Assembly (NCBI GenBank): GCA_964342815.1
Contig: CAYFHS010000019.1
Span: 10,285-74,284, forward strand
From: an uncultured archaeon
GTDB lineage: Archaea > Thermoplasmatota > Penumbrarchaeia > JASLWR01
Length of the DNA: 64,000 nucleotides
Direction: 5' to 3'
Shown here: positions 11,959-64,000 of the stretch, one piece after another
How positions within the stretch are numbered: the stretch's first letter is position 1
How the letters are laid out: each line of letters begins with the position of its first letter
Program-made: the position numbers and the translations under genes
Notes under the pieces: model-generated
Told to the model about the DNA's origin: nothing
Database searches by the model: none
What the model saw: the letters and a program-made list of their open reading frames with translations, nothing else

Positions 11959-12600
11959 TTATAATCGGTCCCACAGTTCGGTCATTCGGTCCGTCATCTC
12001 GTCGAAAAAACTTGATTTGTATGCTGTTAATATTTTAAATACGAGCTTTGGGTTCCTGATAGTATAAAAGGTATTTCTCCCTCTGACCTCGTCTTTTAAA
12101 ATATCAGCTCGAATCATTTTTCTCAGATAGTAGGACAGGGTCGACGGCGGCATATCGAACTCGTTCAACATGTCCTTGTTGCATGAAAACGGATTAAAAT
12201 ACAAAAATAAAACGATATGCCTTGGAACCTTCAACCTTAAAAGCGATATAATTATTTTTTCCTGAGGGCTTATTTTATCTCTAATGAAGTATCTTGTGTA
12301 ATATCCGTCCTTTTTCTTCACTATCAGTTCCTGTTTGTCAAGAATGTCAAGTTGATATTCTAATACACCTATCCTGATATCGAGCTTTCGCGCGATCTCT
12401 CTGAAATGCAGTCCCGGAGATTTGAATATCAGTTCGTAGATCCTTCTTCTGGTATCCAACTGCAGTACATCGCTTTTTTTCATGTTTTCGGAACTATCGC
12501 TCAGACTCCTTTTTGCATTTCTGCGGGCCGTCCGTCCGGTGAAAAAGCGATCTTTCATACAGTTCCCTTTTTTATGCTTATTTTCTGGTAATGGCGGCAT
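11959..12600 (-). CDS. transcriptional regulator with two tandem winged-helix (ArsR-like) domains
   Basis: wHTH 1 is RRRIYELIFKSPGLHFREIARKLDIRIGVLEYQLDILDKQELIVKKKDGYYTRYF. wHTH 2 is PRHIVLFLYFNPFSCNKDMLNEFDMPPSTLSYYLRKMIRADILKDEVRGRNTFYT. It is a paralog of the C-termini of 37911..40118 and 58324..62193. The start is uncertain (ATG at 12600 or 12558). See the finding on a possible fusion with 12578..12868. Confidence 0.8.
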   Translation of the reverse strand: MPPLPENKHKKGNCMKDRFFTGRTARRNAKRSLSDSSENMKKSDVLQLDTRRRIYELIFKSPGLHFREIARKLDIRIGVLEYQLDILDKQELIVKKKDGYYTRYFIRDKISPQEKIIISLLRLKVPRHIVLFLYFNPFSCNKDMLNEFDMPPSTLSYYLRKMIRADILKDEVRGRNTFYTIRNPKLVFKILTAYKSSFFDEMTDRMTELWDRL

Positions 12601-41990: not shown

Positions 41991-42202
41991 TCACTATAAG
42001 TATCTACCGTATTGATCGACCAGCCACTGGCCTTGACACTGCTTCTGAGGTTTTTTTCACGATTCTGACTGTCAGGATACTCTTTGATATTTGACGATTG
42101 ATCTTTTTCATTTCCAATGATTGGTTGGCCGATTCCAATAAAGATAAGGAGGAGAGCGATCAACAGCCCCCCGATTTGGGATTTTATTTTTATCATCTCC
42201 AT
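40124..42202 (-). CDS. N-terminal part of the same protein: signal peptide plus 13 tandem repeats of about 47 aa (beta-propeller-like)
   Basis: The signal/anchor is IGGLLIALLLIFIGIGQPIIG. Thirteen units of the form S(I/L)A(L/V)DSNDRPHI(S/A)Y........LKYAY.DG..W..E.VD....VG.. follow. The ORF stops in mid-repeat. Confidence 0.8.
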   Translation of the reverse strand: MEMIKIKSQIGGLLIALLLIFIGIGQPIIGNEKDQSSNIKEYPDSQNREKNLRSSVKASGWSINTVDTYSDYTSIALDSNGRPHISYLDHQNSKLKYAYNDGAQWQIEIVDNVGLKYNSTTLALDTNDRPHITYCTGGWYNQSLKYAHFNNSWNITILDIYVDSASLSLDSNDKPHISYCIGNWPDRNLMYAHWDGIAWQNETLETQWDVGGYNSIAVDSNDRPHIAYSAGVWNYFKLRYAYFDGNTWHNETADPRMNVGFYTSIALDSNDRPHISYLRYWPDYDLKYTYYDGNVWNNETVDSDSYVDRHTSLAIDSNDRPHIAYLDRWPDFYLKYVYWDGGVWNIETVDEDSEVLGFFSLAIDESDQVHICYSDDSDWPDTWLKYAYNNPPNDWTILSIDDRYGEFSSIAMDSSNRPHITYYNGSDDKLKYSYYDGAQWHTDTVDSIGDTYNTSVIAIDSNDRPHIVYCTGDWENSYLKYAYYDGNNWNITSLGIKTYYSTSIALDSNDRPHFSCCVGEWPEGDLKYVYWDGLSWHNETVDSESRVGMWSSIAVDQNDNVHISYQDGGNNDDLKYAYYDGNSWSVETVDAQGIVGAFSSLSLDSANRPHISYYDGLPNRDLKYAHHNGGAWIIETVDSNGYVGEYTSIAVDSNDRPHIAYYDYWPNYYLKYAFWNGSVWQKEIVDSKGFER

Positions 42203-45156: not shown

Positions 45157-48100
45157 TTATTCCTCTCTTCCAACCCTCCCGAGTTCTTCCTCCACACAAT
45201 CCAAATTATCCTCCTCACCTATCCTCTCTCTCCTTTTCGTAACCAACACAACTCCCAAAACTATCCCAAGCACCAATACCAAAATCCCAACTCCCACGAG
45301 CCACCACATCCCGCTATTTCCTCCTTTCATATTTTCCGATCCTTCCCACCGCTCCCTGTCATCCGGATAAGCGTCGTCCACGTTCGCCACTCCATCTCCG
45401 TCCCTATCGGGATCAAGCGAATCGGGTATGCCATCAGCGTCCGAGTCCCGCGGGACCGAAAGATTACTCAGAGGATTCGTGCCCACTTGCGATTCGACGG
45501 AATTATTCCAGCCGTCGCCGTCCCAATCTATGGGTGTGGAGAGTGGGTCGTAGGGATCACTGCCCTGTTCAAGTTCATAAGTGTCGTTGTAGGTGTCGTT
45601 GTCGGAATCAGCATCAGGAAATGGATTAATTTCACTTTCAACCATAATAACAATAGAATCCGTTACGGTAATGCCGTTATCCACAATAATCGACAAAGTT
45701 ACAGTATAGTTTCCAGGACTTACAAATACATGGATAGGATTCGACTCAAGGCTCGTATTCCCATCTCCAAAATTCCAGAAATACTGGACATCCATATTTC
45801 CGTTAGTATTGTTCAGTATGCCTTCGAAGGAAACGTTCAATGGGCTAACACCATGCGTTGGATTTGCTATAATTTCTACAATTGGTGTATTATTGGGAGA
45901 TTCCCTTGCTACGGATATCGCCATCTCGGCCTTACCAAAATCTCCATCGTCATCGGTAATGTTCAACGATACAAAATATGTTCCTGGTACTGAATAAACA
46001 TGTGATGGATTTTGCTGGTGACTCGTATTTCCATCTCCAAAGGACCAATTCCAGGAGACAATTGTACCGTCCGGATCAATGGACCCTGTGCTGTTGAACT
46101 CGACTATCTCGTCAATATCCGGGTGAATTGGTGTGAAAGAAATATTAATGATTGGAGGAACATTCAGAACCGCTATTGATTTTGTTGTATTATTTCCCCA
46201 TCCCTCATTATCACGTACCGCTAGGGTCACATTATATTCTCCGTCATCATTGAATAAATGCACCGGGTTCTGATCATAGGATATATTTTCGTCCCCAAAA
46301 TTCCAGGTCCAATTTACAATAGAATTTGTATCATTTGCATCGGGGTCTACGGAAGTATCTAAAAATTGAATTTCATCCATATCGGTAGGATCTATCGGTA
46401 GGTATGAAAAATCAGCCATAGGAGTGACATTTACCACTTCAATCTCTCTTGTTAACTTGACAGATAAACCATCATTATCCGTGACCACCAGTTGTACTGC
46501 GTAAATGCCTTCATCAGAATACTGATGGATCGGATTTTGAAAAGCGGAGGTATTTCCATCCCCGAAATTCCAGAACCATGATTCTATGGATCCATCAAAA
46601 TCTGACGAAGTATCGCTGAATCTCACATTTTTCATGGCAATTAGTATGTGGGGATCATAAGAAAAGTTGATGGCGGGCGGAATTAGCGGCCAGACTACAT
46701 GGATATCAACGGGGATCATTAATGGATACTCATCTCTGTTATATCGACCGTCACTAATATTATACGGCGTATCTCCTATACCATCACTTTCCGGTTCATC
46801 TTGATTCACACCGGAGAATGTGTCATTACCGGAATAATTACTCCAGTAATTACCTCCCGATGGATAAGTATCATTCCAGTAATTCTTGCCACCAAAGTCG
46901 CCTGCCTGCCCATTCTCATCCAAATTGCCGATTATATTATTGTGATGTATGATATTGTTTTCACCACCGCCAATGCATCTCTCCAATAAAATTGCCAAGC
47001 CATCATTCCGGGATATATTATTGTATTTAATAAGATTATCAGAAGAAGTGATCATATAGATCCCACGTCCATTATATGAGATATTATTATATAAAACAAC
47101 ATTTTCACTATGATGAGCACCGCCGAGATGGGTGAAGTGTATACCATCGTATGTATTAAAAATAATTGAATTATACTGAATTATGTTGTTATCACTATTT
47201 TCTTTACCATCCATTTGACTGCCAAATATAATGCCAAATCGGTTCTTTATAATTGTATTGTTTTCAATACAGCCGTTTGTTACATTAATGAAGACTATGC
47301 CATCACTGACATTATTTCCACTATGGATGCAGCAGTTTTTAATTACAAAATATTTGCTAACGTTTCGAATTTCAATTCCCGCTTGGTTGGATGCATTAAT
47401 AACCCAATCCTTAATTATGTAGGGATCATTCGGTGTACCTCTGCCTGAGCTAACGCCATTTTCCAATGTGAAATTTTCATGGCCGACGATCCTTATCGGC
47501 TCATGGGCCCAATATATAGGGACATTGATTTGAGCATCGTTTTCAGGTACATTTGGGTCGGTACCTTTAACATATTCTTCAAGATTGGTCTCTCCATCGT
47601 TGTCGGGGTCTTCATTTGCATCGCTGGAATCATTGGGATTCAATCCATGGTCGATTTCCCAATTATTAGGCATCCCGTCCCAATCCAGGTCCTCTGGAAG
47701 AAATGGCTCAATTCGTTCACTCCAATTCGTATCACAATAATCTATTGAATCAGAAGGATTGATCAGCGGATAATAATCGACATCATGCCAAGGGAGGTTT
47801 GTATCACCGATGCCATCTTCGTTTTCATCAGTTCCATTGTAATCAGACCAATGGTTACCATGCCCTGCTGTATCATTCCATGTGTTAGACGATTGTGGCC
47901 ATCCGATCTTTTTATTATAAGTACAGTTAATAAAGTTATTAAAAAAAGCTTTATTACCCGCAGATTGTATTATTAACGGATCAGTATTGTTAATGAAATT
48001 ACATTCAATGACAGAATTGTTCCTCGGACCAGGGATGCAATCCAAATCAGGGTCTTCATCCATTACGATCCCCTTACAAGAATAGAAGTTACATCTATAA

Positions 48101-48591
48101 AATAAAATATTCGACGTACCTCGAAAAAGAAAATTCATATTAAAGAAGTCACAATAGTTATAATTTAAAGTCCCAGGTGAGATATTTCCGCTTAGGTCCT
48201 TACTATAAGAAAAAAGAAAAATTCTATTGCTTTGCGTTCCATTTAGTACTATTGAGTCCGGCCGTCCGAATCCAAGGCTCGAATGAGGATAAAAAATTAT
48301 TACTGTTCCCGGTTCAATCGTTAGAGTAGAATTGTTTTTTATTCCGATAAAATCAATAATGTAATATGGACTATTTTCCTTTGTCCAGGTCGTGTTTTCG
48401 ATTATTTTTTCAAAAACAATCGTTCCCGGATCACCACGGGGGACCATGGATTCTGTGTTGGGAATCGGTTTGAAAAAGGATGGGTCATTTTCCGATTTTT
48501 TCGTTATATCAAAGGTTGAAATGAGATTGAATACCAGAATGACAGTTATGAGTATGTTTAGACCGTGTCTCTGCATTTCGCCTCTTGTCAT
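45157..48591 (-). CDS. surface protein: two right-handed beta-helix (NosD/PbH1-like) regions, 5 PKD domains, TSP3-like Ca-binding module, TM
   Basis: PbH1-like periodicity is seen (NCCIHSGNNVSDGIVFINVTNGCIENNTIIKNRFGIIFG...YNNISYNGRGIYM...YNNISRNDGLAIL). Five W(N/S)FGDGNTS PKD cores are present. DSDADGIPDSLDPDRDGDGVANVDDAYPDD is followed by the TM segment WWLVGVGILVLVLGIVLGVVLV. Confidence 0.9.
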   Translation of the reverse strand: MTRGEMQRHGLNILITVILVFNLISTFDITKKSENDPSFFKPIPNTESMVPRGDPGTIVFEKIIENTTWTKENSPYYIIDFIGIKNNSTLTIEPGTVIIFYPHSSLGFGRPDSIVLNGTQSNRIFLFSYSKDLSGNISPGTLNYNYCDFFNMNFLFRGTSNILFYRCNFYSCKGIVMDEDPDLDCIPGPRNNSVIECNFINNTDPLIIQSAGNKAFFNNFINCTYNKKIGWPQSSNTWNDTAGHGNHWSDYNGTDENEDGIGDTNLPWHDVDYYPLINPSDSIDYCDTNWSERIEPFLPEDLDWDGMPNNWEIDHGLNPNDSSDANEDPDNDGETNLEEYVKGTDPNVPENDAQINVPIYWAHEPIRIVGHENFTLENGVSSGRGTPNDPYIIKDWVINASNQAGIEIRNVSKYFVIKNCCIHSGNNVSDGIVFINVTNGCIENNTIIKNRFGIIFGSQMDGKENSDNNIIQYNSIIFNTYDGIHFTHLGGAHHSENVVLYNNISYNGRGIYMITSSDNLIKYNNISRNDGLAILLERCIGGGENNIIHHNNIIGNLDENGQAGDFGGKNYWNDTYPSGGNYWSNYSGNDTFSGVNQDEPESDGIGDTPYNISDGRYNRDEYPLMIPVDIHVVWPLIPPAINFSYDPHILIAMKNVRFSDTSSDFDGSIESWFWNFGDGNTSAFQNPIHQYSDEGIYAVQLVVTDNDGLSVKLTREIEVVNVTPMADFSYLPIDPTDMDEIQFLDTSVDPDANDTNSIVNWTWNFGDENISYDQNPVHLFNDDGEYNVTLAVRDNEGWGNNTTKSIAVLNVPPIINISFTPIHPDIDEIVEFNSTGSIDPDGTIVSWNWSFGDGNTSHQQNPSHVYSVPGTYFVSLNITDDDGDFGKAEMAISVARESPNNTPIVEIIANPTHGVSPLNVSFEGILNNTNGNMDVQYFWNFGDGNTSLESNPIHVFVSPGNYTVTLSIIVDNGITVTDSIVIMVESEINPFPDADSDNDTYNDTYELEQGSDPYDPLSTPIDWDGDGWNNSVESQVGTNPLSNLSVPRDSDADGIPDSLDPDRDGDGVANVDDAYPDDRERWEGSENMKGGNSGMWWLVGVGILVLVLGIVLGVVLVTKRRERIGEEDNLDCVEEELGRVGREE

Positions 48592-48856: not shown

Positions 48857-49495
48857 CTATGGAATAAAATCGAATAGCTCGGGCCCGATCATAACGGAGA
48901 TCATATACTTGTTGTCATAAATATGGAAATCCTTCATTTGTACGTTCTTCATCTTCGCTATCTCGAATGAGAATTTATTCATTTCCGGTATCGAACTGAA
49001 ACTGAACATCAGTTTTTGTTCCGAGAGGACCTTGTCCCGCAGATCGTTAACGAGCTTCAGCGCGGCTTTGACCTCGTCAATGGTGGTAACTTTCTCCGAT
49101 TCCCGCTGGTCCTTCCGCTTCAATGCCTCGGAAACCGTCAGCATCAGCTCGTCGTTATCCCAGGGTTTGCCTATGTAACTGTATACGTGGGCCTTGTTAA
49201 TAGCTTCCTTTGCTATGTCTATGTCTGAAAAACCAGTAACTAGTATTCTTATTGTGCTGGGCCAGATCTCCTTTGCTCTTCCCAGAAGTTCCACGCCGGT
49301 CATTCCCGGCATCTTGTAATCAGCGAGAATAAGGTCATATTCCTTTTCCACCAGCTTTCCGAGAGCTTCATTTCCATTGGATGATGTGGTAACCTCACAT
49401 TTAAAATCATCAGAAAATTCCAGAATCTTCGATAGAGAGTCCAAAATATTCTCCTCGTCGTCCACTACCATTATACGATAGGTTTTCTTGGCCAC
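48857..49495 (-). CDS. response regulator: receiver domain plus an uncharacterised C-terminal domain of about 90 aa
   Basis: The REC domain is YRIMVVDDEENILDSL...DLILADYKMPGMTGVELL...ILVTGFSD...KPW. I did not recognise the C-terminal part. Confidence 0.85.
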   Translation of the reverse strand: MAKKTYRIMVVDDEENILDSLSKILEFSDDFKCEVTTSSNGNEALGKLVEKEYDLILADYKMPGMTGVELLGRAKEIWPSTIRILVTGFSDIDIAKEAINKAHVYSYIGKPWDNDELMLTVSEALKRKDQRESEKVTTIDEVKAALKLVNDLRDKVLSEQKLMFSFSSIPEMNKFSFEIAKMKNVQMKDFHIYDNKYMISVMIGPELFDFIP

Positions 49496-49532
49496 TTGAT
49501 CCGCTCCTAGGTCGCTTATCTACTATAGTTAT

Positions 49533-50702
49533 TCAGGACGTTATTGGAACTTTAATCGTCATTGATGTCCCCTTCCCTGCCTTGCTTTCCACCTGAATGT
49601 CGCCGTCATGGTCCTTTATTGTCCGATAGCTTATACTGAGTCCGAAACCGGTACCGCTGTCCTTGGTGGTGAAGAAGGGATCGAATATCTTGCTTATTAT
49701 ATCCTCGGGTATTCCCTTACCGTTATCTCGTATCTGGATATAAATATTTTGGCCATCACGCCAGGTTTTTATCCATATGTCTCCCTTTCCCATGGACTGG
49801 GAGGCATTGATGATCACGTTCATGAACACCTGGTTCAGTTGGCCAATGTTGCACTTGGTCTTGGGAATGTCGCCGTAATCGTCGTGTATCTCGATCCGGT
49901 GTTTCAACCGGTTGGTCAAGATTATAAGAGTGTCGGCAATCCCCTCGTTTATATCGGCAGATGCCTTTCCGCCCGTATCCGGTCTCGCAAATCTCTTCAA
50001 TGTTTGCGTTATCTTCGATATCCTGTTGATCCCCTCTATGTTAATCTTAATGTCCTTGTCGATCTGCTCCAGGATCTCCGTATCTATCTTCTTTCCGTCC
50101 CAGCGCCTTTTCAATACCGATATCTTCTTTTCTATGAACTGGGTGTTGGATTTGATGTATGCCAGAGGATTGTTCACCTCGTGTGCGACGCCTGCCACAA
50201 GCTGGCCAAGTGCCGCCATCTTTTCCGATTGAATAAGACCGTATGTCTGCTGCCTTACTTCCTCTTCCAGGTGTTCGGTGTATTTGATAATTTTTTCTTC
50301 CATCTGTTTGCGCTCGATTGCATATCGTATGGACCGCACCAGAAAATAGCTGTTGACCTTTCCCTTGATGAGATAGTCCTGCGCTCCCACCTGTACGGCT
50401 CGTAGACCCAGCGATTCATCCTCGAAACCGGTCAGGACTACTATAGGTACGGTGGGTTCCCTTTCGTATATCCTTCCCACGGTCTCAAGACCTTGACTGT
50501 CCGGTAATGTGAGGTCCAGAAGTGTCACGTCGAACCAATTTTCCTTGAGTTTAAGGAGAGCTTCATCGAGACGCTCCACGTGAACCAGTCTGAACTGGGC
50601 CGCGGGTTTCGCATCCGCCAGCATTTCCCTGATCAATCGGGCGTCCCCGGGATTGTCTTCCACCAGCAGTATCCTGATCGCCCTCACCGTCATATAATTC
50701 AC
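49533..50702 (-). CDS. hybrid response regulator - histidine kinase (REC-HisKA-HATPase_c)
   Basis: The REC domain is [13 protein letters not shown]...[13 protein letters not shown]. The H-box is [12 protein letters not shown], the N-box is [11 protein letters not shown]1 is RDNGKGI and G2 is GTGFGLSI. The ATG overlaps the upstream stop (ATGA at 50699-50702). Confidence 0.9.
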
Positions 50703-51145
50703 TCCTTTGGCAGTCGTACTATGGTCAGCCAGAACTCTTCAATGGACTTTACCACCTTGATGAACTGGTTCAGGTCCACAGGTTTTGTCACGTAACAATT
50801 GGCTCCAAGGCCGTAACTCTTCAAGATATCGATCTCCGCGTTCGAGGTAGTCAATACAACCACGGGTATACGCTTCAAATTATTATCACCCTTTATCTCG
50901 GCCAGAACCTGCCGCCCGTCCATTTTTGGCAGGTTCAGATCCAGCAAGATAAGGTCGGGACGAGGAGCTTTGTCATACTTGCCTTCACACCGGAGAAATG
51001 TCATTGCCTCTTCACCGTCTCTCACCACACAGAGATTGATCCGCATCTTTCCTTCTTCCAGCGCTTCGATGGTAAGACGCACGTCCCCGGGATTGTCTTC
51101 CACCAGCAGTATCTCGACTATCCTGCCGTAATCATCAACGTTCAT
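50699..51145 (-). CDS. single-domain response regulator (CheY/Rcp1-like)
   Basis: [18 protein letters not shown]...[18 protein letters not shown]...VVVLTTS...KPVD. The likely start MNVDDYG at 51145 overlaps the end of the kinase gene by 11 nt. The track start at 51199 is less likely. Confidence 0.85.
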
Positions 51146-52871
51146 ACTCGTTCGCCTCTTTCCTTTTAGGTATGGTGAAGTAGAAGGTGGAGCCCTCACC
51201 CGCTTTCGAAATCACCCATATGCGTCCACCGTGCCGTTCCACGATTTTCTTGCAGACCGCGAGGCCGATACCTGTTCCTGGATATTCCGCTTTTGTGTGT
51301 AGGCGTTGGAATACCTGAAATATCCTATCGGCGTGCTGGGTTTCGATCCCTATGCCATTGTCCCGGACGGTGAAACAGTACGCCTCTTCATTCTCCTTTA
51401 CCGAAATGTGTACGCTGGGACTCTCCTTCCCCCGGAACTTTATCGCGTTTCCAATGAGGTTCAGGAATAGCTGGGCAAGCTGGGTGTCATCGGCCATAAC
51501 AGTGGGCAACGTACCCCGGGTTACAACGGCACCGTTCTCCTTAATTGACATTTCCAGATCGCTCAAAGTTTGATCCACAACCTTTGAACAGTCAGTTGCT
51601 AAAAACGGCTTTTTACGCGTTCCTACCCGGGAGTATGTCAATAGGTCATTGATAAGCCTTTTCATTCTCGTAGCCCCGTCCACGGCGTAAGCTATGAATT
51701 CGAGGGCATTCTTGTCCAGTTTGTTCTTGTATCGACGCTCCAGCAACTGAACGTAACTGGCCACCATTCGCAGAGGTTCCTGAAGATCGTGAGATGCGAT
51801 ATAGGCAAACTGCTCTAACTCCTTATTAGACCGGCTCAACTCCTCGGTTCGCGCTTTGATCTCGTCCTCGAGGTGGCTCCGGTGCTCCATCAATTCTTCT
51901 TCGGCCCGCACCCGTTCACCTATCTCGAGTTGCAATTGGACATTGGCTTCCGTCAACTGGGCGGTACGCTCCTTCACCATATCCTTCAGTGCATCCCGAT
52001 ACATCTTCAGTTCCGCTTCAGCCTGCTCCCGCTCGTCGATCCCGCTTTGCATTTCCGCCTGAATTCGCTTTGATGCTTTATACGATATAAAAAGAATGAC
52101 TAAACCCGATATTATGAAAATTATGGATAGTATTTCTGGATAGCCGAAGTAATTATTTTTTTCCTTTTCAGGGAGGTCCATGGGAAGAGTGGGACAATCG
52201 AGCATGGTGAATATCTCTACCGCCGCGTAAGTGGAATACATATCCCTGCCGTACTGACCTGGACCCGCTTTCTGATCCATGATGAAGTGGAGAATGGGTA
52301 AGCGCTCCAGTGCCTTTGTTTGTCCGGAATTCTCAAAAAAACGCACCGCGGCATATGTACCGTGAAGCGAAACATTCCCATCAATTTCATGAATATATCC
52401 CGCAAAAGCACCTGTTCCCGAGCGCTGATATTTTTTTATTATATAATCTGTGATTTTTTCCAGTGACATTTTCCCCTCCACAAAATCCAATTTCTCGGTT
52501 TCGTTATTACCACCGAGCCACCACAGGGCATTAAAGGCATTATATGTTCCGTAGATCTCGGAGGCTTTTTCTCCAGGTTTGTCCGAGTATCCGCCATCAA
52601 CAGAAGAAAGACTGCTGTCGACGAAACTTGCCACGTTGATAATATAGCTTGACTCGAAGTTCTTACCCTGGTGCCCGTTTATTATTCCCAATGCATTTAT
52701 GGCTTTAGAGGTGCATTTCATGGTTGAAGTCATTCCATCTTCCGTGTATTCCTCATCCCAGAAACCCCCGTCGGGATTCCTGTGAGCATTGATGAAATTT
52801 TCGATGCGGGTCAGGTTCAGTTCCGGCTGGTCCAATCCACCAAGCATTTCAAGTGACTTCAATGCCTCCAA
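51135..52871 (-). CDS. sensor histidine kinase: extracytoplasmic alpha/alpha-repeat-like sensor part, TM, coiled coil, HisKA, HATPase_c; the N-terminus appears truncated
   Basis: The track start is TTG. The TM is [18 protein letters not shown]. The H-box is [16 protein letters not shown], the N-box is [10 protein letters not shown]1 is RDNGIGI and G2 is GTGIGLAVC. The ORF has no N-terminal TM or signal, although about 230 residues lie before the only TM. Confidence 0.85.
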
Positions 52872-53440
52872 TGTTGTCCTGATTCCCGGTGAGTTCTCAT
52901 AGCTTCCCCGAAATCCTGCAAAACGTTCCCTTCACCCGGCTTGTGATAGCTTATGTTACCAAGCAAACTATGGGTAAATTCGATATTTGGAACATAGCAG
53001 TCCATTAGATAATTCAAAGTAGCTTTGTGGTCTATGGACTCGAGGGAATCGAATAAAGAAAGAATGGATATGGCAAATCTCGTTGTTATCAAAGTCTTTG
53101 AATTTCTTTCATCCGGCTCATTAACAAGATCCGGATTATTCACGAAGTAACCCTGGGAGTTCTGACAGGACGCGATATATTCCACGATCTCTCCGGGATC
53201 ATAATGAACATTTTCCTGCCTGTATTTTTCCATAGCTTCCCGGTACTCGGCATCTTCGTCCTCATCCTGTGACTGACGCACGGATGAATAGGCCCAAAGG
53301 TAAACTCCGGAAAATATTAAGCTCAACGCCAGCACAAGTGCATACATTGACCTTGATTTCAATTTCACCATGCAATCGACTCTTCCTTCCCTTTGTTCTT
53401 TCCCCCGCCGGAGAACTTTTGGGAAGCTTATTCCCAACAA
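52859..53440 (-). CDS. N-terminal fragment (TM1 plus the start of the extracytoplasmic sensor domain) probably belonging to the histidine kinase 51135..52871
   Basis: The TM is MYALVLALSLIFSGVYLWAY. The following soluble sequence overlaps the kinase ORF by 13 nt in another frame. The kinase frame is already open for 60 nt upstream of its TTG. Confidence 0.6.
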   Translation of the reverse strand: MLGISFPKVLRRGKEQREGRVDCMVKLKSRSMYALVLALSLIFSGVYLWAYSSVRQSQDEDEDAEYREAMEKYRQENVHYDPGEIVEYIASCQNSQGYFVNNPDLVNEPDERNSKTLITTRFAISILSLFDSLESIDHKATLNYLMDCYVPNIEFTHSLLGNISYHKPGEGNVLQDFGEAMRTHRESGQHWRH

Positions 53441-53454
53441 ATTGTACCTTTATA

Positions 53455-55275
53455 TTAATAAAGAGCATGATCCTTTGCTCTCTTGTAAGACTTTTCGGCC
53501 TCTTCCAATCTCACCTCGTCACCAATCTTTCTTGAAATGGCCATCTCCTGCTCGAAACATTCCATTGCCTGGGGGAACATCAGCCAATAAATATAGATCT
53601 CACCTTTGAAATGAAGTATCGAAGCCAGTTCCATTTGGGATATGTCCTTATCCTCGAGAACTTCGAGGATGTTCAAGAACTCCTCGAAATGATGATCTGC
53701 CATGATGTCCATTCCCTTTTCTTTGACTTCATTCAACGCATTTCTGAAATCCCCGGCCTTCATCAGATGGTACACCGCTTCCAGTGAATCCTTGGAATCA
53801 TCCTCTTCAAGATAGAGCCCGGCCACCCATGTATGATATCTGTTCTTCAATGACGGATTGACCCTTCGTATCAGGAATTCTCTGATGAGATCATGCTGCT
53901 CTATGCCGTCCTTACCTTCAAAAAGAAGATATTTTTCCAGCAGTGAGTCAATATGGTCGAAAGAAACCTCTTCATCGATGAAGAGATATTCGGGTGGAAA
54001 TGGTCTTCTGAACACCGAGGCAAGTTCCAGTATTCTCTTTTCCTCTGCGTTAAGTTTCGAAAATATCTCTTCGTGGATGTACCGGGAGACGTCTTTCATA
54101 CCCTTCGGCGCTTTGTCTCTGCCTCCCGAACCTATGAGTTCGATAGATAACGGATGTCCTTCGGTTATCCGGTATATGTCTGAGAGAAGCTCTTCGTCGT
54201 CCGTGCCAAGCCCGAGCATCAACCTGGAGTCCTCCTTGCTAAGACCCTGCAGTTTCAGTTCGAATATATTGTTTCCAACCACGGCCTCCGTGCGATCGTA
54301 GCATGACGGTCTTTCACGGCCAATGATCATGAATTTGACATTCGTGAGAGGCCTTATCTTCTTCAAAGCTTCATGAACGAAAGCGGAAATCCTGGGTGAG
54401 CATTTCTGATAGTCGTCGAGAACGAACAGCGCCTTGAAATCCTTGAGTGTGTTCAGGGTTATTTTAAGGGCGGAATCTATATCGAGGGAAACCGTGGAAT
54501 CGAGGTACTGTGGAAGCTCTGGATAACCTGCTTTTGCAAGAAAAAAAGCGAATTCCCTGCCTATCTTCCTTAAAGTGTCGAATTCTCTGAAGCGGTGATG
54601 AAAAATATGGACATTTCCCTGCATTTCCTCTACGATTCTCATGGCTACCGATGTCTTGCCAATGCCCGCGATACCGGTTATGGTGATCATCTGGACCTCG
54701 TCAATCCCCAGCTGCTCCCGGATCTGGAAAAGTTCTTTTTTTCTCCCGCAGAACTGCTTCGCTTTCGGAATGTCCTCGGGATAAACACAGAATTCTTCCC
54801 CTTTCTTTCCATCAGTATTCGAGCTCTCCATATAGGAGGCCGGATCGAACACACCCACCGGGATAAGACAGCCTATAAGGTCCAACAGGCTCATCCCTTC
54901 CGGAACATTGTCCCTTATCTCACCCAGTGTTCTCTCCACCAGTGTATTATTCTCCTTTACCAATACCCTGGAGTTCAGCACACGTGATGATATTTCTTTG
55001 GCAGTGGCGGCTCCATTTTGATTTAGGTAGTAAACCTTCCGCTTTCTCCTAGCTCCCTGAACGTGGCGGCTGACCTCTTGGATGAGACCCAATTCCATCA
55101 AGCGTTTCATGGAACGGGGAATGTGCGTCCGATTGATACCTATGGCATCCGCTATACCCTCCTGGGCAAGTTCCATGGGAGCATTGAACTCGTCTATTCG
55201 GGAGGGATCGTGGCATAATAGATGCAGCAAAATCTTCTCTTCTACCTTTATGGGTACGATTTCTGCAGGGGACAT
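53455..55275 (-). CDS. STAND-type regulator: N-terminal wHTH, P-loop NTPase, C-terminal helical (TPR-like) repeats
   Basis: The wHTH is LAQEGIADAIGINRTHIPRSMKRLMELGLIQEV. Walker A is ITGIAGIGKTSVA and Walker B is ALFVLDDYQ. The C-terminal part is helical repeats (LEAVYHLMKAGDFRNALNEVKE...). Confidence 0.75.
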   Translation of the reverse strand: MSPAEIVPIKVEEKILLHLLCHDPSRIDEFNAPMELAQEGIADAIGINRTHIPRSMKRLMELGLIQEVSRHVQGARRKRKVYYLNQNGAATAKEISSRVLNSRVLVKENNTLVERTLGEIRDNVPEGMSLLDLIGCLIPVGVFDPASYMESSNTDGKKGEEFCVYPEDIPKAKQFCGRKKELFQIREQLGIDEVQMITITGIAGIGKTSVAMRIVEEMQGNVHIFHHRFREFDTLRKIGREFAFFLAKAGYPELPQYLDSTVSLDIDSALKITLNTLKDFKALFVLDDYQKCSPRISAFVHEALKKIRPLTNVKFMIIGRERPSCYDRTEAVVGNNIFELKLQGLSKEDSRLMLGLGTDDEELLSDIYRITEGHPLSIELIGSGGRDKAPKGMKDVSRYIHEEIFSKLNAEEKRILELASVFRRPFPPEYLFIDEEVSFDHIDSLLEKYLLFEGKDGIEQHDLIREFLIRRVNPSLKNRYHTWVAGLYLEEDDSKDSLEAVYHLMKAGDFRNALNEVKEKGMDIMADHHFEEFLNILEVLEDKDISQMELASILHFKGEIYIYWLMFPQAMECFEQEMAISRKIGDEVRLEEAEKSYKRAKDHALY

Positions 55276-58323: not shown

Positions 58324-61300
58324 CTAATGTTTTTTCACGTAAAGATGAATGACCCCGTTTTTCCTTTCCTTTAATACAACACCTTTATCGCTAAGAGTTG
58401 CAAGATGATAGGAAATGGTGACATAGGAAAGATTCATCTTTTGGATCAATTCTTTGTAGGTTATCCCGGATTGATTTCCGATCAAGTTGACAATTTTCTC
58501 CTGCATCGGGGTGAGTGGTTTATGATGATTGAGCGAGTTCCCGTAATAGCACCGCATAAAATATCCGTCGTATACTGTGTTTATTACCTCGGCCTCTTTT
58601 AGTTTCCGGATATGATGCTCCAAGGTGCTGGAATTAATCTCGAGCTTTCGTGATAGTTCACGGAAATGCATTCCGGGATTTTGCCGGATATATGAGCATA
58701 TTTTCTCACGCTTTCCATTCTGAAAGATTTTTTTATAGCCGATCCGGGTGTACCCAATGAAGCAGATCAGCAAGACGATCACTCCCAGTCCGAGATATAC
58801 GGCAATTTTCAGTCTCCTGAATTCCTTCTTTTTTGTCCATCTGCCAGGATCGCGGGGATAGGCATCCTGTCCGTTTGGGACCCCATCCCCATCCCAGTCA
58901 AGGGGAGTCGATCGATTATCGTAAGGATCGCTTCCGGTTTCCTTTTCTTCAGCATCGGTCCAACCATCACTGTCGGTATCATTTTGAACACGCGGCGGCT
59001 CTTCATCCTCTTTTACAAATACCATCAGAGTGTCGGTACCGACGTTTCCTTCCAGGTCCCTGACCAGCAGGATCACAAGATAATCTCCGAGTTCATCGAA
59101 TTTGAATGAGGTTTTCTGTCCGTATAACTGGATGTGTCGATTATTATACCCAAAGATCCAGGAATAATTCTCGATACCGACATTGTCCGAACTCCCGTTT
59201 CCATTCAAGAACACCGGCTCTCCCGGCACGACTTCGATATCCTTCCCAGCCCTAGCAGTTGGTTTTTCAATGTCCCGGACCTGAATTGTTGTAGAATTTT
59301 CTGCCCAGTTATCATGGAAATCCACAACCCTCAGGGTTATCTCGTAAAGACCAGGCAAGGAAAAATTAAAGCTGACATTCACGCCGTACAGGAGTATAAC
59401 TTTACCTCCATATTCTAATGCCCATGTGAAGTTGGCAATTCCAATATTATCGGAACTGGCCGAGCCGTCGAATGCAACAGAAGTGTACTGGTCGACAAGC
59501 AAATCCGGACCGGGATGGGCTACAGGTGGGATTGTATCGCCGACGAAAACCATAAGTTCATCGATTCCCCACAAACCATCCGCATCAGACACGTTCAAGG
59601 TTACATAAAAGTAGCCCGTTTCGACAAAACGGAATTCGACCTTTTCACCAAATAAATATATTATCTCACCGCTGTAAAAAAACGACCAGGTATAGTTTAT
59701 AATTCCGTTATCATCATAACTTCCACTTCCGTCAAATTGGGCGATCTCATGTGGTTCGATAGTGATATCGTCCCCGGCTACTGCCACGGGCTTCGGTGAA
59801 CTCTTTATAGTTTGAATCCCCCAGTCATACAATATGGGACTCTCGGATTGACTGGATTGAAAATATGCCTGAAGGTAGATATCTCTGTGTTCGCTTGGAT
59901 TAATGCCTGACATATCAAGAACAAGACGTTTCGTATTTTGCGTATTCCTTATTAAAACCTCACCCGTGTTCGCATCATGGACCGAGATGTTTAGGTAGGC
60001 ATTTTCGGGAACGAAACGATTGGCCTGGAAAGAATTCCATTTTTTCCCTTCGGCAATTTCGATATTCTGAGAACGGACCGACGCATTATATTGAATTAAC
60101 TTTGAGTGAGCGATTATTTCCTGAGTGGTAAGAGCACGGTTATAGATGGCCACCTCATCGATAATTCCTTCATAGTTGCGAAGGTAATTATGAGTTGCGC
60201 CGATATAAAACTCTAGGGAGGTATCGTTCATGGTCGTGGAAGTCCCGGTATCGGTCAGAACTCCATCGACATACAATTTTATTATCTGTCCGGAGCGAAG
60301 TGCTGCTATATGATGCCAGACTCCGTCATTTACCGGTTCCGCCGAGTAGATATTTTCATCACAAATGAACCTTATTCGCCCGTCCGATCCGATTCTCATT
60401 GTCCAGGGATCGTATCCGTCAGGATATTTATTCAGTATCACTATCCCGTTGGGATCCGAATGGACCTGGGTGGTTTTTATCCATGCTTCCAAGGTGAAAT
60501 CACCTTTTTCCACACTGATTATATCGCTGTCTGATATAGATACACAATCATCGATACCGTCAAATTCCAGAGCTTTTCCACGGATCCCCTTAACCCAGTC
60601 GTTCTTATCCATATTTTGCAGAGACCCGTTATTTCCATTTCCACTCCTATCATGCAAAATATTACCTCTACCTTCATCGAAATCCCACAGTCCAACCATA
60701 CCCGGTTCCGGCAATAATTGATTATCTGACAACAGGAGCTGCCCACCGGATATGTTAAAATCACCAATCAATTTGCCATTACCTATAAAACTATCTCTCC
60801 AGGCATTTTCAGCGATCCACTCTACACCCCATGAATACATGACAGGAGAAGAATTGTCGTAATTTTCCCCGAAATTGGCCTTCAAGTTGATGCTTGTGAG
60901 ATCCATCTGATTTAAAGGTGACAGATCGATATTCTCGTGGGTCAAATTCTCGAATCCGGGAATGATGGCACCGGTAGCATTGTTAATAACCGAGATGTTA
61001 ATATGTGTACCAGATGTTTCATCCTTGGATATCGACAAGATATCCCAGAGATAAACGGCCGGTTTTTCAATATCCTTTGAGATGAAGTACGAACTTTCGG
61101 GTTTTACGATAACAATGGGTTCCCTGGGAATGTGTTTTCTTATAGCAATATCATCGAAAAAGATTGCCCAGTTTCCATCCCAGCACAAGGTATACAATGT
61201 CTCCAATTCCAGGTCCGTGATTGAGCCCTGGTAAGTTCCGTTTGCTAGAGTAAAATCGGTCCAAGAGCTGATATTTTCACTGAAAATTTTGGTTCCGTCA

Positions 61301-62193
61301 ACACTCAAATTCCCATACCACGGTTTTGTTTTATTATGATAACTGGGGTCCATATAAATCCTGACATCATATGAGTCCGGTGGAAGATTGACCTTTTTGC
61401 AAGCCACGGTGGATTCGGTTGTCCCAAACTGGGATGTCGCTATTAGAGTAACGTAAAAGGCTTTCCGGTTTCCTCTGAGAGTTGGCCAGATCCTGATCTC
61501 TTGATTTGGCTGGGTTTCTGATTTGATGAACCATCCTCCTGGATTCGTTTGATTAAAAGGGTAATCTTTAGCGTCTTCAAAGAAGACAAATGTGGCGTGG
61601 CCATCGCTTTTATTGGGGGCACGGGGATTTCCATGGTACATCCAGATTGTTGTGATGGAATCTGCAGTAAGGTCTTTTACCTTCACCCATATCTTGCATC
61701 CGCTTGTGATATTCCATTTCTCAATCCAGAAATCCAACGGATTACCATTATCGTCCACAAACCTGATATCGCTGCCGTTCAGAAGAATCCTCGAAAAGTT
61801 GAAGTTACCGGAGTCAATGGTAATGGGGACCTGAAAATCCGTGAGATGACTGCCGCTTCTCTCGACGATTTCGATGGACCTACGGTATTTCCAATCGGGA
61901 AGGTCCCATTCCCTGATACCAACAGCTCCATTCTCGATGATAATGTCATCTGTCGCTCTATCCATCCCTTTCTCATCTTCGAAATCGTCTAACCAGGAAC
62001 CCCCGAACTCATGGGATTCGATCAAGGTATCCCTCATTTCGGTGTTATCGGTCATCTTTTGATGGACTCCTGGTTCGTCATAACCCCTTACTTTTATGTC
62101 CTCTTGTTTTTCAGTCGAAGTTTGAAATCCCATGAGAACCTGGGTTAGTAACAGAATGAGGAGGACTGTTGCCAGCTTAATATTAAAAGACAT
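58324..62193 (-). CDS. membrane-tethered regulator: signal peptide, DUF2341-like domain, LamG/concanavalin-like domain, 3 PKD domains, TSP3-like Ca-binding module, TM, two cytoplasmic wHTH domains
   Basis: The signal is LATVLLILLLTQVLMGFQ. The DUF2341-like region is WKYRRSIEI...FQVPITID...GSDIRFVDDNGNPLDFWIEKWN...IWVKV...TTIWMYHGNP. The LamG_3-like region is GLWDFDEGRGNILHDRSGNGNNGSL...GKALEFDGIDDCVSI...FTLEAWIK...DEVAIYNRALT. PKD occurs three times. The Ca-binding module is DTDSDGWTDAEEKETGSDPYDNRSTPLDWDGDGVPNGQDAYPRD. The TM is IAVYLGLGVIVLLICFIGY. The wHTH domains are REKICSYIRQNPGMHFRELSRKLEINSSTLEHHIRKLKEAEVI and QEKIVNLIGNQSGITYKELIQKMNLSYVTISYHLATLSDKGVV. Confidence 0.9.
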   Translation of the reverse strand: MSFNIKLATVLLILLLTQVLMGFQTSTEKQEDIKVRGYDEPGVHQKMTDNTEMRDTLIESHEFGGSWLDDFEDEKGMDRATDDIIIENGAVGIREWDLPDWKYRRSIEIVERSGSHLTDFQVPITIDSGNFNFSRILLNGSDIRFVDDNGNPLDFWIEKWNITSGCKIWVKVKDLTADSITTIWMYHGNPRAPNKSDGHATFVFFEDAKDYPFNQTNPGGWFIKSETQPNQEIRIWPTLRGNRKAFYVTLIATSQFGTTESTVACKKVNLPPDSYDVRIYMDPSYHNKTKPWYGNLSVDGTKIFSENISSWTDFTLANGTYQGSITDLELETLYTLCWDGNWAIFFDDIAIRKHIPREPIVIVKPESSYFISKDIEKPAVYLWDILSISKDETSGTHINISVINNATGAIIPGFENLTHENIDLSPLNQMDLTSINLKANFGENYDNSSPVMYSWGVEWIAENAWRDSFIGNGKLIGDFNISGGQLLLSDNQLLPEPGMVGLWDFDEGRGNILHDRSGNGNNGSLQNMDKNDWVKGIRGKALEFDGIDDCVSISDSDIISVEKGDFTLEAWIKTTQVHSDPNGIVILNKYPDGYDPWTMRIGSDGRIRFICDENIYSAEPVNDGVWHHIAALRSGQIIKLYVDGVLTDTGTSTTMNDTSLEFYIGATHNYLRNYEGIIDEVAIYNRALTTQEIIAHSKLIQYNASVRSQNIEIAEGKKWNSFQANRFVPENAYLNISVHDANTGEVLIRNTQNTKRLVLDMSGINPSEHRDIYLQAYFQSSQSESPILYDWGIQTIKSSPKPVAVAGDDITIEPHEIAQFDGSGSYDDNGIINYTWSFFYSGEIIYLFGEKVEFRFVETGYFYVTLNVSDADGLWGIDELMVFVGDTIPPVAHPGPDLLVDQYTSVAFDGSASSDNIGIANFTWALEYGGKVILLYGVNVSFNFSLPGLYEITLRVVDFHDNWAENSTTIQVRDIEKPTARAGKDIEVVPGEPVFLNGNGSSDNVGIENYSWIFGYNNRHIQLYGQKTSFKFDELGDYLVILLVRDLEGNVGTDTLMVFVKEDEEPPRVQNDTDSDGWTDAEEKETGSDPYDNRSTPLDWDGDGVPNGQDAYPRDPGRWTKKKEFRRLKIAVYLGLGVIVLLICFIGYTRIGYKKIFQNGKREKICSYIRQNPGMHFRELSRKLEINSSTLEHHIRKLKEAEVINTVYDGYFMRCYYGNSLNHHKPLTPMQEKIVNLIGNQSGITYKELIQKMNLSYVTISYHLATLSDKGVVLKERKNGVIHLYVKKH

Positions 62194-62515
62194 CTGACTA
62201 CCTTTTTTTTATAATGAGATACATTTTGACAATTAATTAAAGATTATGACGCATATAAATATTATGGGACAAGATTCGAAAAGACCGGAAATCCCGTCCA
62301 GAATATCGATATGGGATTTGTTGAGCCAGATTGTTAAGATATTGAAGTAAAAAGAAGAATCCCACAGTTTTCATAAGCGCCGGAATACTTATAATTGCCC
62401 TTGTCCATACGATGATAGGATCTTTATTTTTACTGAGATAAAAAAATGTCCATGGAGACCACGATATCGAATCGATTGGGATGTACGTAACCCTTGAATG
62501 AAATAAAGCGAGTTG

Positions 62516-64000
62516 ATGATTATGGGGTATAATAGTATTTGTGCAATTACTGTGGGTATCATTATTTTCTCACTATTATCTCCAATAATCTCGGGGGAAT
62601 CCGGTAGGACCGAAATCAATTCACCGATAACCAGGTCTTCACAGAAGACAATCGTCAACGGCTCCGGCAGCGGGGATTACACCCATATCCAAGGGGCTAT
62701 CGACAATGCAAGCGAGGGGGATACGGTTTTCGTGCAGGCTGGGACGTACCACGAAAATGTCTTGATAAGCAAGACGATAACACTTGTTGGACAGGGAAGC
62801 GAAGATACTATCATAAACGGTGGGGGTGAGAGCGATGTGATTCATATCAAAGCGAATCATGTGAATGTCAGCGGTTTCAATATCACTAATTGCGGTGATG
62901 ACTATGAGCGGGACATGGGTATCGAATTGAACTTTTCTTCGTACTCAAAGATCGAGAACAACGTTATTTTTTCGAATTATTTCTCAGGGATTTCTCTCTC
63001 ATCTTCGGACAATATTACCGTCGCCAACAACACATGTCACTCGAATGGTATCGGGATAGTGGTAAGATGGAACAGTTCCGACAATATCATCACGAACAAT
63101 ACCTGTTATTGGAACTATGAAAGGGGGATTTCGGTTCACGGGGCCAGGAACCGGATCGATAACAATACATGCAAATCAAACGGATGGTCGGGTATTGCAG
63201 TGGGATCCTGGGGAAACACCTTGGCAGATAATAATTGCTCTTCAAGCCAGAATGGAATATCCCTGGATGGAGCTTATGGGAATAATGTTATTCGCAATAC
63301 GTGTCTTCTAAACAATTACGGAATAGAATTATCTGGCTCGGGATATAATAATATTTCAGAAAACCGCTGCTTCCGGAATAATAATGGTATTGCACTAGGC
63401 CAAGTGTCCAATGGGAACCTAATCACCTCCAATAATGTTTTCAATAATGTCAATTGGGGTTTGGGGATCAATTACTATCCGTATTTTTGTGAGGTCGGAT
63501 GCGGAGGTAATCTGGTATATCAGAATAGATTCATCAATAATAATAACGGCAGTATCCAGGCGGTGGATAACAGCTCTGGGAATTCATGGAACCATACATC
63601 AATCGGCAACTACTGGTCCGATCTACCGATGATTGATGAGGACGAGGATGGGATAATCGATCAGGTGTATGCCATCAGCGGTCTTTCCGGTATATTCGAT
63701 TTTTTCCCTCTATCAGCTGACTTCGATTCCTCAAAACCCGTGGCGTTCGGTGGAATGAATAAAATTATCACTGTAAATACTCTGTTCCAGTTCAATGCTT
63801 CCAATTCCTATGACGATGCTCCCATAGCATATTATACCTGGACCTTCGCATATAATGAAACTCAAATTACTCTGTACGGATCCGATCCTATTTTCCTATT
63901 TGGGGAATCCGGAAACTACACTGTGTCGCTGAGAGTTGAGGATAAAGACGGAAACACGGATTCGGACCTTTTTGATATAAAAGTAAATCCCGTTTCGAAT
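62516..64000 (+). CDS. partial (3'-open) surface protein: signal/anchor, NosD/PbH1-like right-handed beta-helix, then the first PKD domain
   Basis: This ORF is absent from the supplied track because it has no stop in the window. The frame is open from 62507 to 64000, with ATGs at 62516 and 62522. My translation reads MGYNSICAITVGIIIFSLLSPIISG...GDYTHIQGAIDNASEGDTVFVQAGTYHENVLISKTITLVGQG. Periodic NN.(C/I)..N..GI motifs follow, and then KPVAFGG...FNASNSYDD...YTWTF...GNYTVSLRVEDKDGNTDS. Confidence 0.8.
   Translation, partial: MIMGYNSICAITVGIIIFSLLSPIISGESGRTEINSPITRSSQKTIVNGSGSGDYTHIQGAIDNASEGDTVFVQAGTYHENVLISKTITLVGQGSEDTIINGGGESDVIHIKANHVNVSGFNITNCGDDYERDMGIELNFSSYSKIENNVIFSNYFSGISLSSSDNITVANNTCHSNGIGIVVRWNSSDNIITNNTCYWNYERGISVHGARNRIDNNTCKSNGWSGIAVGSWGNTLADNNCSSSQNGISLDGAYGNNVIRNTCLLNNYGIELSGSGYNNISENRCFRNNNGIALGQVSNGNLITSNNVFNNVNWGLGINYYPYFCEVGCGGNLVYQNRFINNNNGSIQAVDNSSGNSWNHTSIGNYWSDLPMIDEDEDGIIDQVYAISGLSGIFDFFPLSADFDSSKPVAFGGMNKIITVNTLFQFNASNSYDDAPIAYYTWTFAYNETQITLYGSDPIFLFGESGNYTVSLRVEDKDGNTDSDLFDIKVNPVSN

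Follow-up and report, generated by a model that had tools for sequence, protein, structure and literature searches.

What does a giant, adhesin-like surface protein do with two winged helix-turn-helix (wHTH) domains at its cytoplasmic end? This question is raised by p1, the product of an open reading frame (ORF) of 1289 codons on the minus strand of the 64-kb window (the whole stretch of DNA that was analysed, 64,000 nucleotides). p1 is a surface protein of an uncultured marine Thermoplasmatota archaeon, where the assignment to the Thermoplasmatota was taken from the source names of its relatives. The reading that we prefer, with a confidence only a little better than even, is that p1 is a one-component transmembrane (TM) transcription regulator. 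The gene and the parts of its product which carry this reading are the following.

58324..62193, minus strand: p1 gene, an uninterrupted ORF of 1289 amino acids (aa) encoding a type-I single-pass membrane protein with C-terminal tandem wHTH domains.
58735..58821, minus strand: single TM helix, aa 1125-1153, from hydropathy and within a helix modelled by AlphaFold2 (AF2) at aa 1120-1156; it is followed by the juxtamembrane motif Y-[ST]-[RK]-[IL]-[KR].
58543..58716, minus strand: first wHTH domain (wHTH1), ArsR/HVO_0163_N type, aa 1160-1217, from Pfam, AF2 and PDB 5duk.
58336..58509, minus strand: second wHTH domain (wHTH2), MarR/ArsR type, aa 1229-1286, from Pfam, AF2 and PH1932.

In the Pfam scan, residues 1161-1217 matched HTH_HVO_0163_N (E-value 4.1e-15), HTH_24 (5.8e-15) and HTH_5 (1.8e-10), and residues 1227-1280 matched MarR (1.8e-7) and HTH_11 (1.6e-7). 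HTH_HVO_0163_N and HTH_24 each match two stretches of the protein. The bit scores of the tail exceed the Pfam cut-offs, with 55 versus 21.9 for HTH_24, 56 versus 31 for HTH_HVO_0163_N (PF24266), 41 versus 22 for HTH_5 and 31.4 versus 24.6 for MarR. The AF2 model of the tail, based on a 46-row alignment, has a pLDDT of 90.3 and shows two canonical three-helix-plus-wing units, with a beta-hairpin wing in wHTH1 and a linker of about ten residues between the two domains; a single long helix (aa 1120-1156) comprises the TM segment and a juxtamembrane extension. The wHTH assignment made in the original prediction is thus upheld by the profile searches as well as by a structural model with a pLDDT of 90. 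The pTM of the model is only 0.56, which leaves the mutual orientation of wHTH1 and wHTH2 uncertain; the tandem might form a built-in pseudo-dimer.

Taken singly, the wHTH domains superpose on ArsR/SmtB regulators (SrnR, CadC, HlyU, MarR) at 1.1-2.8 Å in Foldseek. A profile of the protein family described below matched PDB 5duk, a 'putative DNA binding protein' of 77 aa, with an E-value of 3.7e-16 and PH1932 with 1.6e-8, and there were further matches to the Pyrococcus heat-shock regulator Phr (2p4w), ArsR and AdcR. The p1 tail is strongly basic, with an isoelectric point (pI) of 9.8 and a net charge of +13 (family median: pI 9.8, +10). The tandem three-helix-plus-wing layout of the model comes without the flanking alpha1 and alpha5 helices. 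Judged from its sequence, the tail is homologous to the ArsR/SmtB family, but it is not a canonical member of it.

The part of p1 outside the cell is of a very different nature. Hydropathy analysis revealed only two hydrophobic segments, namely aa 1-26 and the TM helix at aa 1125-1153, and between them the following parts can be distinguished.

62116..62193, minus strand: hydrophobic N-terminus (aa 1-26), interpreted from hydropathy and sequence as a Sec-type signal peptide or anchor.
61915..62115, minus strand: acidic N-terminal linker, aa 27-93, probably disordered (AF2 pLDDT below 50).
61531..61914, minus strand: DUF2341 beta-sandwich, aa 94-221, from Pfam PF10102, with a confident AF2 model for aa 94-209.
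61093..61530, minus strand: ectodomain region aa 222-367, with no family match and a low-confidence model.
60793..61092, minus strand: repeat module A, aa 368-467, all-beta, about 100 aa, related to module B, with a confident AF2 model.
60115..60711, minus strand: lectin jelly roll of the LamG or concanavalin-like type, aa 495-693, which forms an insert between modules A and B.
59797..60078, minus strand: repeat module B, aa 706-799, from internal BLAST, kept in relatives, with a confident AF2 model.
59008..59793, minus strand: three PKD domains, aa 801-1062, from Pfam and BLASTP; the region shared with the paralog begins here.
58849..59007, minus strand: TSP3-like calcium module, with one DxDxDG motif at aa 1072 and another at aa 1099, and with a TSP3_bac match in the paralog.

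The original prediction had assigned a DUF2341-like and a LamG-like part to the head, and both were recovered by Pfam: DUF2341 (PF10102) at residues 139-221 with an E-value of 1.4e-22 and 80.3 bits versus a cut-off of 23.4, and Laminin_G_3 (PF13385) at residues 546-693 with 7.7e-28 and 98 bits versus 27.6. Foldseek confirmed the LamG fold, with matches to the lectin domains of trypanosomal trans-sialidases, to the binding domains of clostridial neurotoxins and to the carbohydrate-binding domain 4 of the arabinanase AbnA. The same all-beta module of about 100 aa is present twice, at about 372-460 and at 708-796 (internal BLAST, 28% identity, E-value 1e-8), and module A is conserved in the relatives P0004, P0009, P0015 and P0152. 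PKD_4 (PF18911) is present in three copies at residues 801-1060 (9.3e-30, 103 bits versus 27). With a mean pLDDT of 66.9, the AF2 model of the head reaches good confidence in DUF2341, in LamG and in the two repeat modules, but is poor at aa 27-93 and 210-367. The ectodomain contains 28 N-x-S/T sequons, compared with 10.2 expected from shuffles (97.5th percentile: 16). It is therefore probably N-glycosylated, which would fit an exposed archaeal surface protein. It has been suggested that DUF2341 acts as an adhesin domain at pilus tips (PMC4858521), and in MotA-like proteins its function is described as unknown (PMC12505986).

The window contains a second gene with the same stalk and tail.

37911..42202, minus strand: paralog p2, a head of propeller repeats and Ig modules on a stalk of PKD, calcium module, TM helix and two wHTH domains, split into two ORFs by a 1-nt indel at about 40125.

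It had been claimed that the C-terminal region of p1, about 480 aa, is paralogous to the product of 37911..40118. In agreement with this, BLASTP aligned residues 802-1280 of p1 with residues 241-721 of that ORF at 43% identity, an E-value of 9e-120 and six gaps. The alignment begins at the first PKD domain and is colinear across all three PKD domains, the calcium module, the TM helix and both wHTH domains; both peptides that had been quoted for the comparison were found in the ORF translations. The similarity is not restricted to generic PKD repeats, since the TSP3, TM and wHTH part of p1 alone still matched p2 in tblastn with an E-value of 1.5e-63 and 47% identity. The heads were rightly considered unrelated, as residues 1-800 of p1 gave no BLAST match at E≤1e-3 against P0003, the intact form of the paralog.

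Along the stalk, p1 and p2 share about 35-40% of their amino acids and 45-50% of their nucleotides, with the exception of the calcium module, where the values rise to 83% and 84%, respectively. Within this module, 53 nt are exactly identical (58939..58991 and 38541..38593, both minus strand) and have no other copy in the window; when the TSP3 motif was searched for in degenerate form at the nucleotide level, only the two wHTH paralogs contained it. The tract looks like a short gene-conversion tract or a recombination joint at the boundary of ectodomain and anchor. In GATA(T)ATATC at about position 40125, between the ORFs 40124..42202 and 37911..40118, one base is missing, and this breaks the frame of p2. 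This base is the sole difference over 12.6 kb to contig L004, where p2 is an intact ORF of 1428 aa (P0003). The broken allele was also seen in a second assembly (L005). The indel is either a real population polymorphism, as in pseudogenisation or an on/off switch, or a recurrent error. An exact look-up of the 692-aa fragment and of P0004 returned no record.

The two paralogs belong to a large family. A profile built from two sequences, which covers the TM helix and both wHTH domains, was scored against 1.84 billion cluster representatives and gave 9,259 matches at E≤1e-3, and 3,530 cluster representatives remained at E≤1e-10. When the tail was used as a single sequence in a word-index search, no more than one TARA fragment turned up, and a scan of genome contigs found only an unrelated Brevibacillus wHTH. 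Among the top 150 profile matches, 105 are at least 300 aa long and have a hydrophobic helix at a distance of 130-180 aa from the C-terminus; in nearly all top matches the TM helix and the C-terminus are about 140 aa apart. The length of the N-terminal parts in this set lies between almost nothing and about 1,900 aa, and the complete proteins usually start with a hydrophobic segment. The commonest members, which were identified by a word-indexed search with a 35-sequence tail profile, have about 300 aa and one CarboxypepD_reg domain outside. Almost all named members are proteins from Thermoplasmata or Thermoplasmatota metagenome-assembled genomes (MAGs) that were automatically annotated as wHTH regulators, with source names such as 'winged helix-turn-helix transcriptional regulator [Thermoplasmata archaeon]' or 'DNA-binding MarR family transcriptional regulator'. 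One of the relatives with a DUF2341 head is MDP6155404.1 from a Candidatus Thermoplasmatota MAG.

What these proteins have in common is their tail. In the aligned tails the juxtamembrane motif is near-invariant and reads Y-[ST]-[RK]-[IL]-[KR]-x3-[ILV][LF]xNxxR; it is followed by NPGxH and then (T/V)Lx(H/Y)HLxxL in wHTH1, and by LTPxQ, PG and a YH-containing helix in wHTH2. The ArsR-like signature of the recognition helix, (T/V)Lx(H/Y)Hhxxh, is kept in both wHTH domains across the family. p1 carries the signature of this archaeal TM and tandem-wHTH family with YTRIG, NPGMH, TLEHH and TISYH. In a Pfam scan of 60 long members, HTH_24 was present in all 60 and HTH_HVO_0163_N in 59. The ectodomains of these 60 proteins are diverse, with matches to PKD (22), NosD/beta-helix (10), InlK_D3 (8), DUF2341 (4), He_PIG (4), VWA (2) and LamG_3 (2). 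In total, 69 Pfam families were matched, the HTH families of the tail included.

The combination of a DUF2341 head with the stalk recurs in the diverged relatives P0004 (1404 aa), P0009 (950 aa), P0015 (1140 aa) and P0152/P0157 (1132 aa), which indicates that it has been maintained. Among the relatives with a DUF2341 head, only p1 and P0004 possess the LamG insert between the two repeat modules. The pair of DUF2341 and LamG_3 also exists without wHTH domains in giant archaeal surface proteins (Nanoarchaeota, Nanoclepta, Palaeococcus).

Next to p2 in the window there are two further proteins with the same kind of anchor, and at some distance from both p1 and p2 there is a soluble relative of the tail.

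42391..45078, minus strand: giant surface protein with FG-GAP, CARDB and PKD domains and a PKD-TSP3-TM anchor, without wHTH.
45157..48591, minus strand: giant surface protein with NosD beta-helix and PKD domains and a PKD-TSP3-TM anchor, without wHTH.
11959..12600, minus strand: soluble tandem-wHTH paralog of the tail, 213 aa, no TM helix, with HTH_HVO_0163_N, homologous to the tails of the membrane proteins.

The two giant surface proteins stop 2-22 residues past their TM helix. Because they use the same anchor without a wHTH tail, the PKD and TSP3 portion is a generic surface-protein anchor and not specifically a sensor, and the constant unit of the family consists only of the TM helix, the juxtamembrane motif and the two wHTH domains. 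The original prediction had proposed a conserved signalling stalk with swapped heads as the hallmark of a modular receptor family. As far as the architecture is concerned, this holds. The constant unit is narrower than the proposed stalk, and terms like sensor, signalling and receptor denote a presumed function. The soluble protein at 11959..12600 has a counterpart of 156 aa directly downstream of the DUF2341-head relative P0152 (L008, 11605..12075), and the existence of such soluble tandem-wHTH paralogs indicates that the tail is a self-sufficient module. Within 64 kb, the family is therefore represented by at least two membrane-bound copies and one soluble copy.

How might such a protein work as a regulator? 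In the mechanism that we propose, the lectin- or adhesin-like head (DUF2341, repeat module, LamG, repeat module) would be held off the membrane by the three PKD domains and the calcium-binding TSP3-like hinge. An extracellular ligand, for instance a glycan, a particle or a cell surface, would occupy or cluster the heads, and this would change the oligomeric or conformational state of the TM helix and the juxtamembrane segment. The change could then set whether the tandem wHTH, acting as a pseudo-dimer, binds an operator with two half-sites. The data establish the layout of p1 with its topology features, its wHTH folds and its basic tail, the paralogy with p2, and a large and modular family; that the protein binds DNA, regulates genes and senses a ligand, and that these activities are coupled, is what we infer. 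With respect to the mode of action, we slightly favour that the tail works while tethered to the membrane over its release by cleavage.

Several observations speak against a transcription regulator. Neither a DNA target nor a ligand was found. The tail scores 47 bits with the NCBIfam ArsR/SmtB model NF033788, which is under the cut-off of 55. In Foldseek, the best matches of the tail as a whole are the tandem-WH proteins RPC34, ESCRT-II, ScpB and SelB, with TM-scores of only about 0.3, and several of them (ESCRT-II, ScpB, SelB) bind proteins or RNA. wHTH1 begins only about four residues past the TM helix, which could hinder its access to DNA; the DNA-binding domains of ToxR and CadC are located much farther from the membrane. 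Moreover, the recognition helices hardly differ even where the heads of the members do, which would be unexpected if each paralog had its own operator. The PKD-DxDxDG-TM anchor is shared with the two neighbouring giant surface proteins that have no wHTH tail, and a candidate palindrome upstream of p1 is not enriched in the window. Finally, no neighbour or partner gene is conserved among the loci of three DUF2341-head relatives: the adjacent gene encodes a 196-aa secreted protein at p1, a soluble wHTH protein at P0152 and a DUF4178-like protein at P0015, and the downstream proteins of 196 and 212 aa are unrelated to each other. The short spacing between TM helix and wHTH1 and the little-varying recognition helices keep two other explanations alive.

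The first of them is signalling by regulated proteolysis, which we regard as rather unlikely. Binding of a ligand by the ectodomain, or shedding of the ectodomain, would lead to a cleavage in or near the TM helix and release the tandem-wHTH tail as a soluble protein, following a logic similar to that of Notch, SREBP or RsgI. Tethered DNA binding is sterically awkward with such a short linker, and a freed tail would evade this problem; the soluble proteins at 11959..12600 and directly downstream of P0152 are equivalents of what would be set free. Proteolytic control has also been documented for the bacterial regulators CadC and TcpP in the work on these two proteins (PMC11484849, PMC11323476). 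The near-invariance of the juxtamembrane motif next to highly variable ectodomains would suit a cleavage site, but it is explained equally well by a membrane-interface or positive-inside anchor that caps wHTH1. Furthermore, no protease gene is linked to the gene in any of the loci examined.

It is about as doubtful that p1 is primarily a structural adhesin or envelope protein, in which the wHTH tail would serve as a non-regulatory docking module for a protein partner, in the manner of ScpB or ESCRT-II, or as a non-specific tether to nucleoid or plasmid DNA. The tandem-WH scaffold proteins among the whole-tail Foldseek matches point in this direction, but the tail shares its sequence homology with bona fide DNA-binding regulators and not with ScpB or ESCRT-II, to which it is similar with TM-scores of only about 0.3. 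The near-invariant recognition helices below different heads would be expected for one common partner; they retain the ArsR-type signature in both wHTH domains, however, and the strongly basic charge of the tail likewise speaks against this explanation. The outer part of p1 suits an adhesin, considering the proposal of DUF2341 as a pilus-tip domain (PMC4858521) and the likeness of LamG to the lectins of toxins and sialidases, and p1 is situated within an island whose giant surface proteins are anchored in the same way.

A more far-reaching version of the transcription-regulator reading would see in the family a lineage-wide expansion of type-I receptor-transcription factors. Adhesin-like surface proteins would themselves be the transcription factors of a contact- or particle-dependent outside-in signalling, their heads would be shuffled by recombination onto a single output module of TM helix and tandem wHTH, and their tails possibly released in a Notch-like manner. 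We consider this improbable as a whole. If it was true, glycans, prey or partner cells and marine particles would be possible cues, and the identical 53-nt tract at the junction of ectodomain and anchor would mark an active exchange of cassettes.

That p1 might be an artefact, whether from chimeric assembly, from reading two genes through as one or from the decay of a fused pseudogene, was worth considering since the frame structure of other genes in the window varies between assemblies, but it is effectively excluded by the identical product on seven contigs from several samples and assemblers, by the same head-and-stalk architecture in the diverged relatives P0004, P0009, P0015 and P0152, and by the same spacing between TM helix and C-terminus in thousands of family members. 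The seven contigs have sizes of 20-200 kb and come from several marine metagenome assemblies, including TARA Oceans PRJEB4352; on each of them the same 1289-aa protein was called. p1 is therefore a real and intact gene and no product of the present assembly, in line with the original prediction, which held that the architecture, given the intact ORF, is no artefact of the frame breaks seen elsewhere.

The comparison with described systems shows which features of p1 are familiar and which are not. Transmembrane transcription regulators (TTRs) have been surveyed as a widespread class; the census of Demey et al. (2023) comprises 50,302 TTRs, of which 56% are single-pass and 1,384 are archaeal (PMC10269533). 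p1 has both features by which a TTR is formally defined, a predicted DNA-binding domain (HTH_24, 55 bits versus 21.9) and at least one TM helix (1125-1153). Like many TTRs, it is single-pass, and HTH_24 and HTH_20 are listed in the census with about 1.2% of the TTRs each (PMC10269533). In contrast, the census table of non-DNA-binding domains does not contain PKD, DUF2341 or CarboxypepD_reg and gives Laminin_G_3 for 12 proteins (PMC10269533), so that, going by this table, the MAG-dominated Thermoplasmata family is essentially not captured there. Compared to TTRs at large, p1 adds a tandem wHTH, a giant adhesin-like ectodomain and an almost complete lack of a linker to the membrane.

With ToxR, CadC and TcpP, which act at the membrane and are in some cases under proteolytic control, p1 shares the one-component logic of an extracytoplasmic domain, a single TM helix and a cytoplasmic winged-helix DNA-binding domain. 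However, its topology is opposite, with the DNA-binding domain C-terminal to the TM helix, and it carries two wHTH domains per chain, which are of the ArsR/MarR type; there was no match to Trans_reg_C (OmpR/PhoB) in the Pfam scan. Its ectodomain of about 1,100 aa also contrasts with the small periplasmic sensor of these proteins. The only experimentally studied archaeal precedent that we found are the membrane-bound transcription factors ArnR and ArnR1 of Sulfolobus acidocaldarius, which are likewise HTH-containing and of the one-component type (PMC6396743). In ArnR, the HTH is N-terminal, the HAMP-like and sensing domain lies in the cytoplasm, two TM helices are located at the C-terminal end, and an ectodomain is lacking (PMC6396743). 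p1 differs from ArnR and ArnR1 in domain order, has no HAMP domain and shows no sequence relationship to them.

Closer to p1 are short Thermoplasmata proteins of about 300 aa (such as P0046, P0178 and P0198). They share the TM helix, the juxtamembrane motif and the tandem wHTH and match the family profile with E-values down to 8.6e-56. These true family members have the source names 'winged helix-turn-helix transcriptional regulator' or 'carboxypeptidase regulatory-like domain-containing protein', and their ectodomain is a single small CarboxypepD_reg beta-sandwich, whereas p1 has a head and stalk of about 1,100 aa. wHTH1 is also a clear homolog of PDB 5duk and the PF24266 (HTH_HVO_0163_N) proteins, but these are soluble single-domain proteins or are built differently. 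We know of no published function for 5duk or the HVO_0163-type proteins. The head pair of p1 is found on another membrane-embedded transducer in bacterial proteins of about 600 aa with DUF2341, LamG_3 and MotA/ExbB, where the output is a proton-channel subunit instead of a DNA-binding tail and the function is reported as unknown (PMC12505986). Literature searches on HVO_0163, on DUF2341 and on Thermoplasmatota together with PKD and winged helix yielded no paper on the architecture of p1. Its combination of type-I topology, tandem-wHTH output and giant ectodomain is thus uncharacterised, but the general class of TTRs has already been described and the sequences are public and automatically annotated.

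Marine Thermoplasmatota are abundant and associated with particles and organic matter, and to our knowledge almost nothing is known about signal transduction in their uncultured members. If the tail binds DNA, the family would constitute a major and very direct route from the surface to the genome, represented by thousands of sequence clusters. The repertoire of ectodomains (lectin folds, beta-helices, VWA, propellers) could then be read as a catalogue of what these cells sense, and the concept of TTRs would be broadened by the inverted topology, by ectodomains longer than 1,000 aa and by a tandem-wHTH pseudo-dimer as output. Should the tail be a docking module instead, p1 would be an ordinary surface protein whose anchor is unusual. 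With its size, its diverse heads and no characterised member, the family is worth studying and can be tested directly, although its mere existence will not astonish specialists.

Concerning its expression, p1 is probably its own transcription unit. This is suggested by a TATA-like element that precedes the ATG by about 60 nt, an oligo-T run that follows the stop codon at a distance of about 45 nt, and a TATA-like element together with a Shine-Dalgarno-like sequence that belong to the gene following p1. In the divergent intergenic region between p1 and a plus-strand NosD/beta-helix/PKD gene (62194..62521, 328 bp) there is a 10-bp palindrome, ATATCGATAT (within 62305..62316), together with a related repeat upstream that contains ATCGAT. 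As a candidate operator, the palindrome TCCCATATCGAT (62305..62316) was rejected: it has one exact copy in the window, and with one mismatch it has five (1.6 expected), none of which is obviously promoter-linked.

Among the other genes of the window, a cluster of two-component genes lies between two blocks of surface-protein genes (48857..52871, minus strand) and encodes three receiver-domain proteins and two HisKA/HATPase kinases, one of which is fused to a receiver. The ORF structure of the prenyltransferase-like and histidine-kinase region at 51135..53440 (minus strand) differs between assemblies, with ORFs of 193 and 578 aa here and in L002, 439 and 305 aa in L001, and 193, 249 and 305 aa in L004; several genes of the island thus vary by frame-changing indels. 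Two genes downstream of p1, the 606-aa protein encoded at 53455..55275 (minus strand) combines an N-terminal Crp-like HTH with weak AAA_22, NB-ARC and NACHT matches (STAND-type NTPase). The 1801-aa ORF at 6464..11869 (plus strand), for which Pfam gave no match, starts with a hydrophobic segment and has one TM helix (1648-1679) and a charged tail about 120 aa long. The product of 25166..27952 (plus strand, 928 aa) has an N-terminal hydrophobic segment, a weak PKD match, a TM helix at 703-737 and a proline-rich cytoplasmic tail of about 190 aa that ends in a zinc-ribbon-like CPNC...CPQC motif. It is possible that this is another surface protein with a nucleic-acid- or protein-binding tail.

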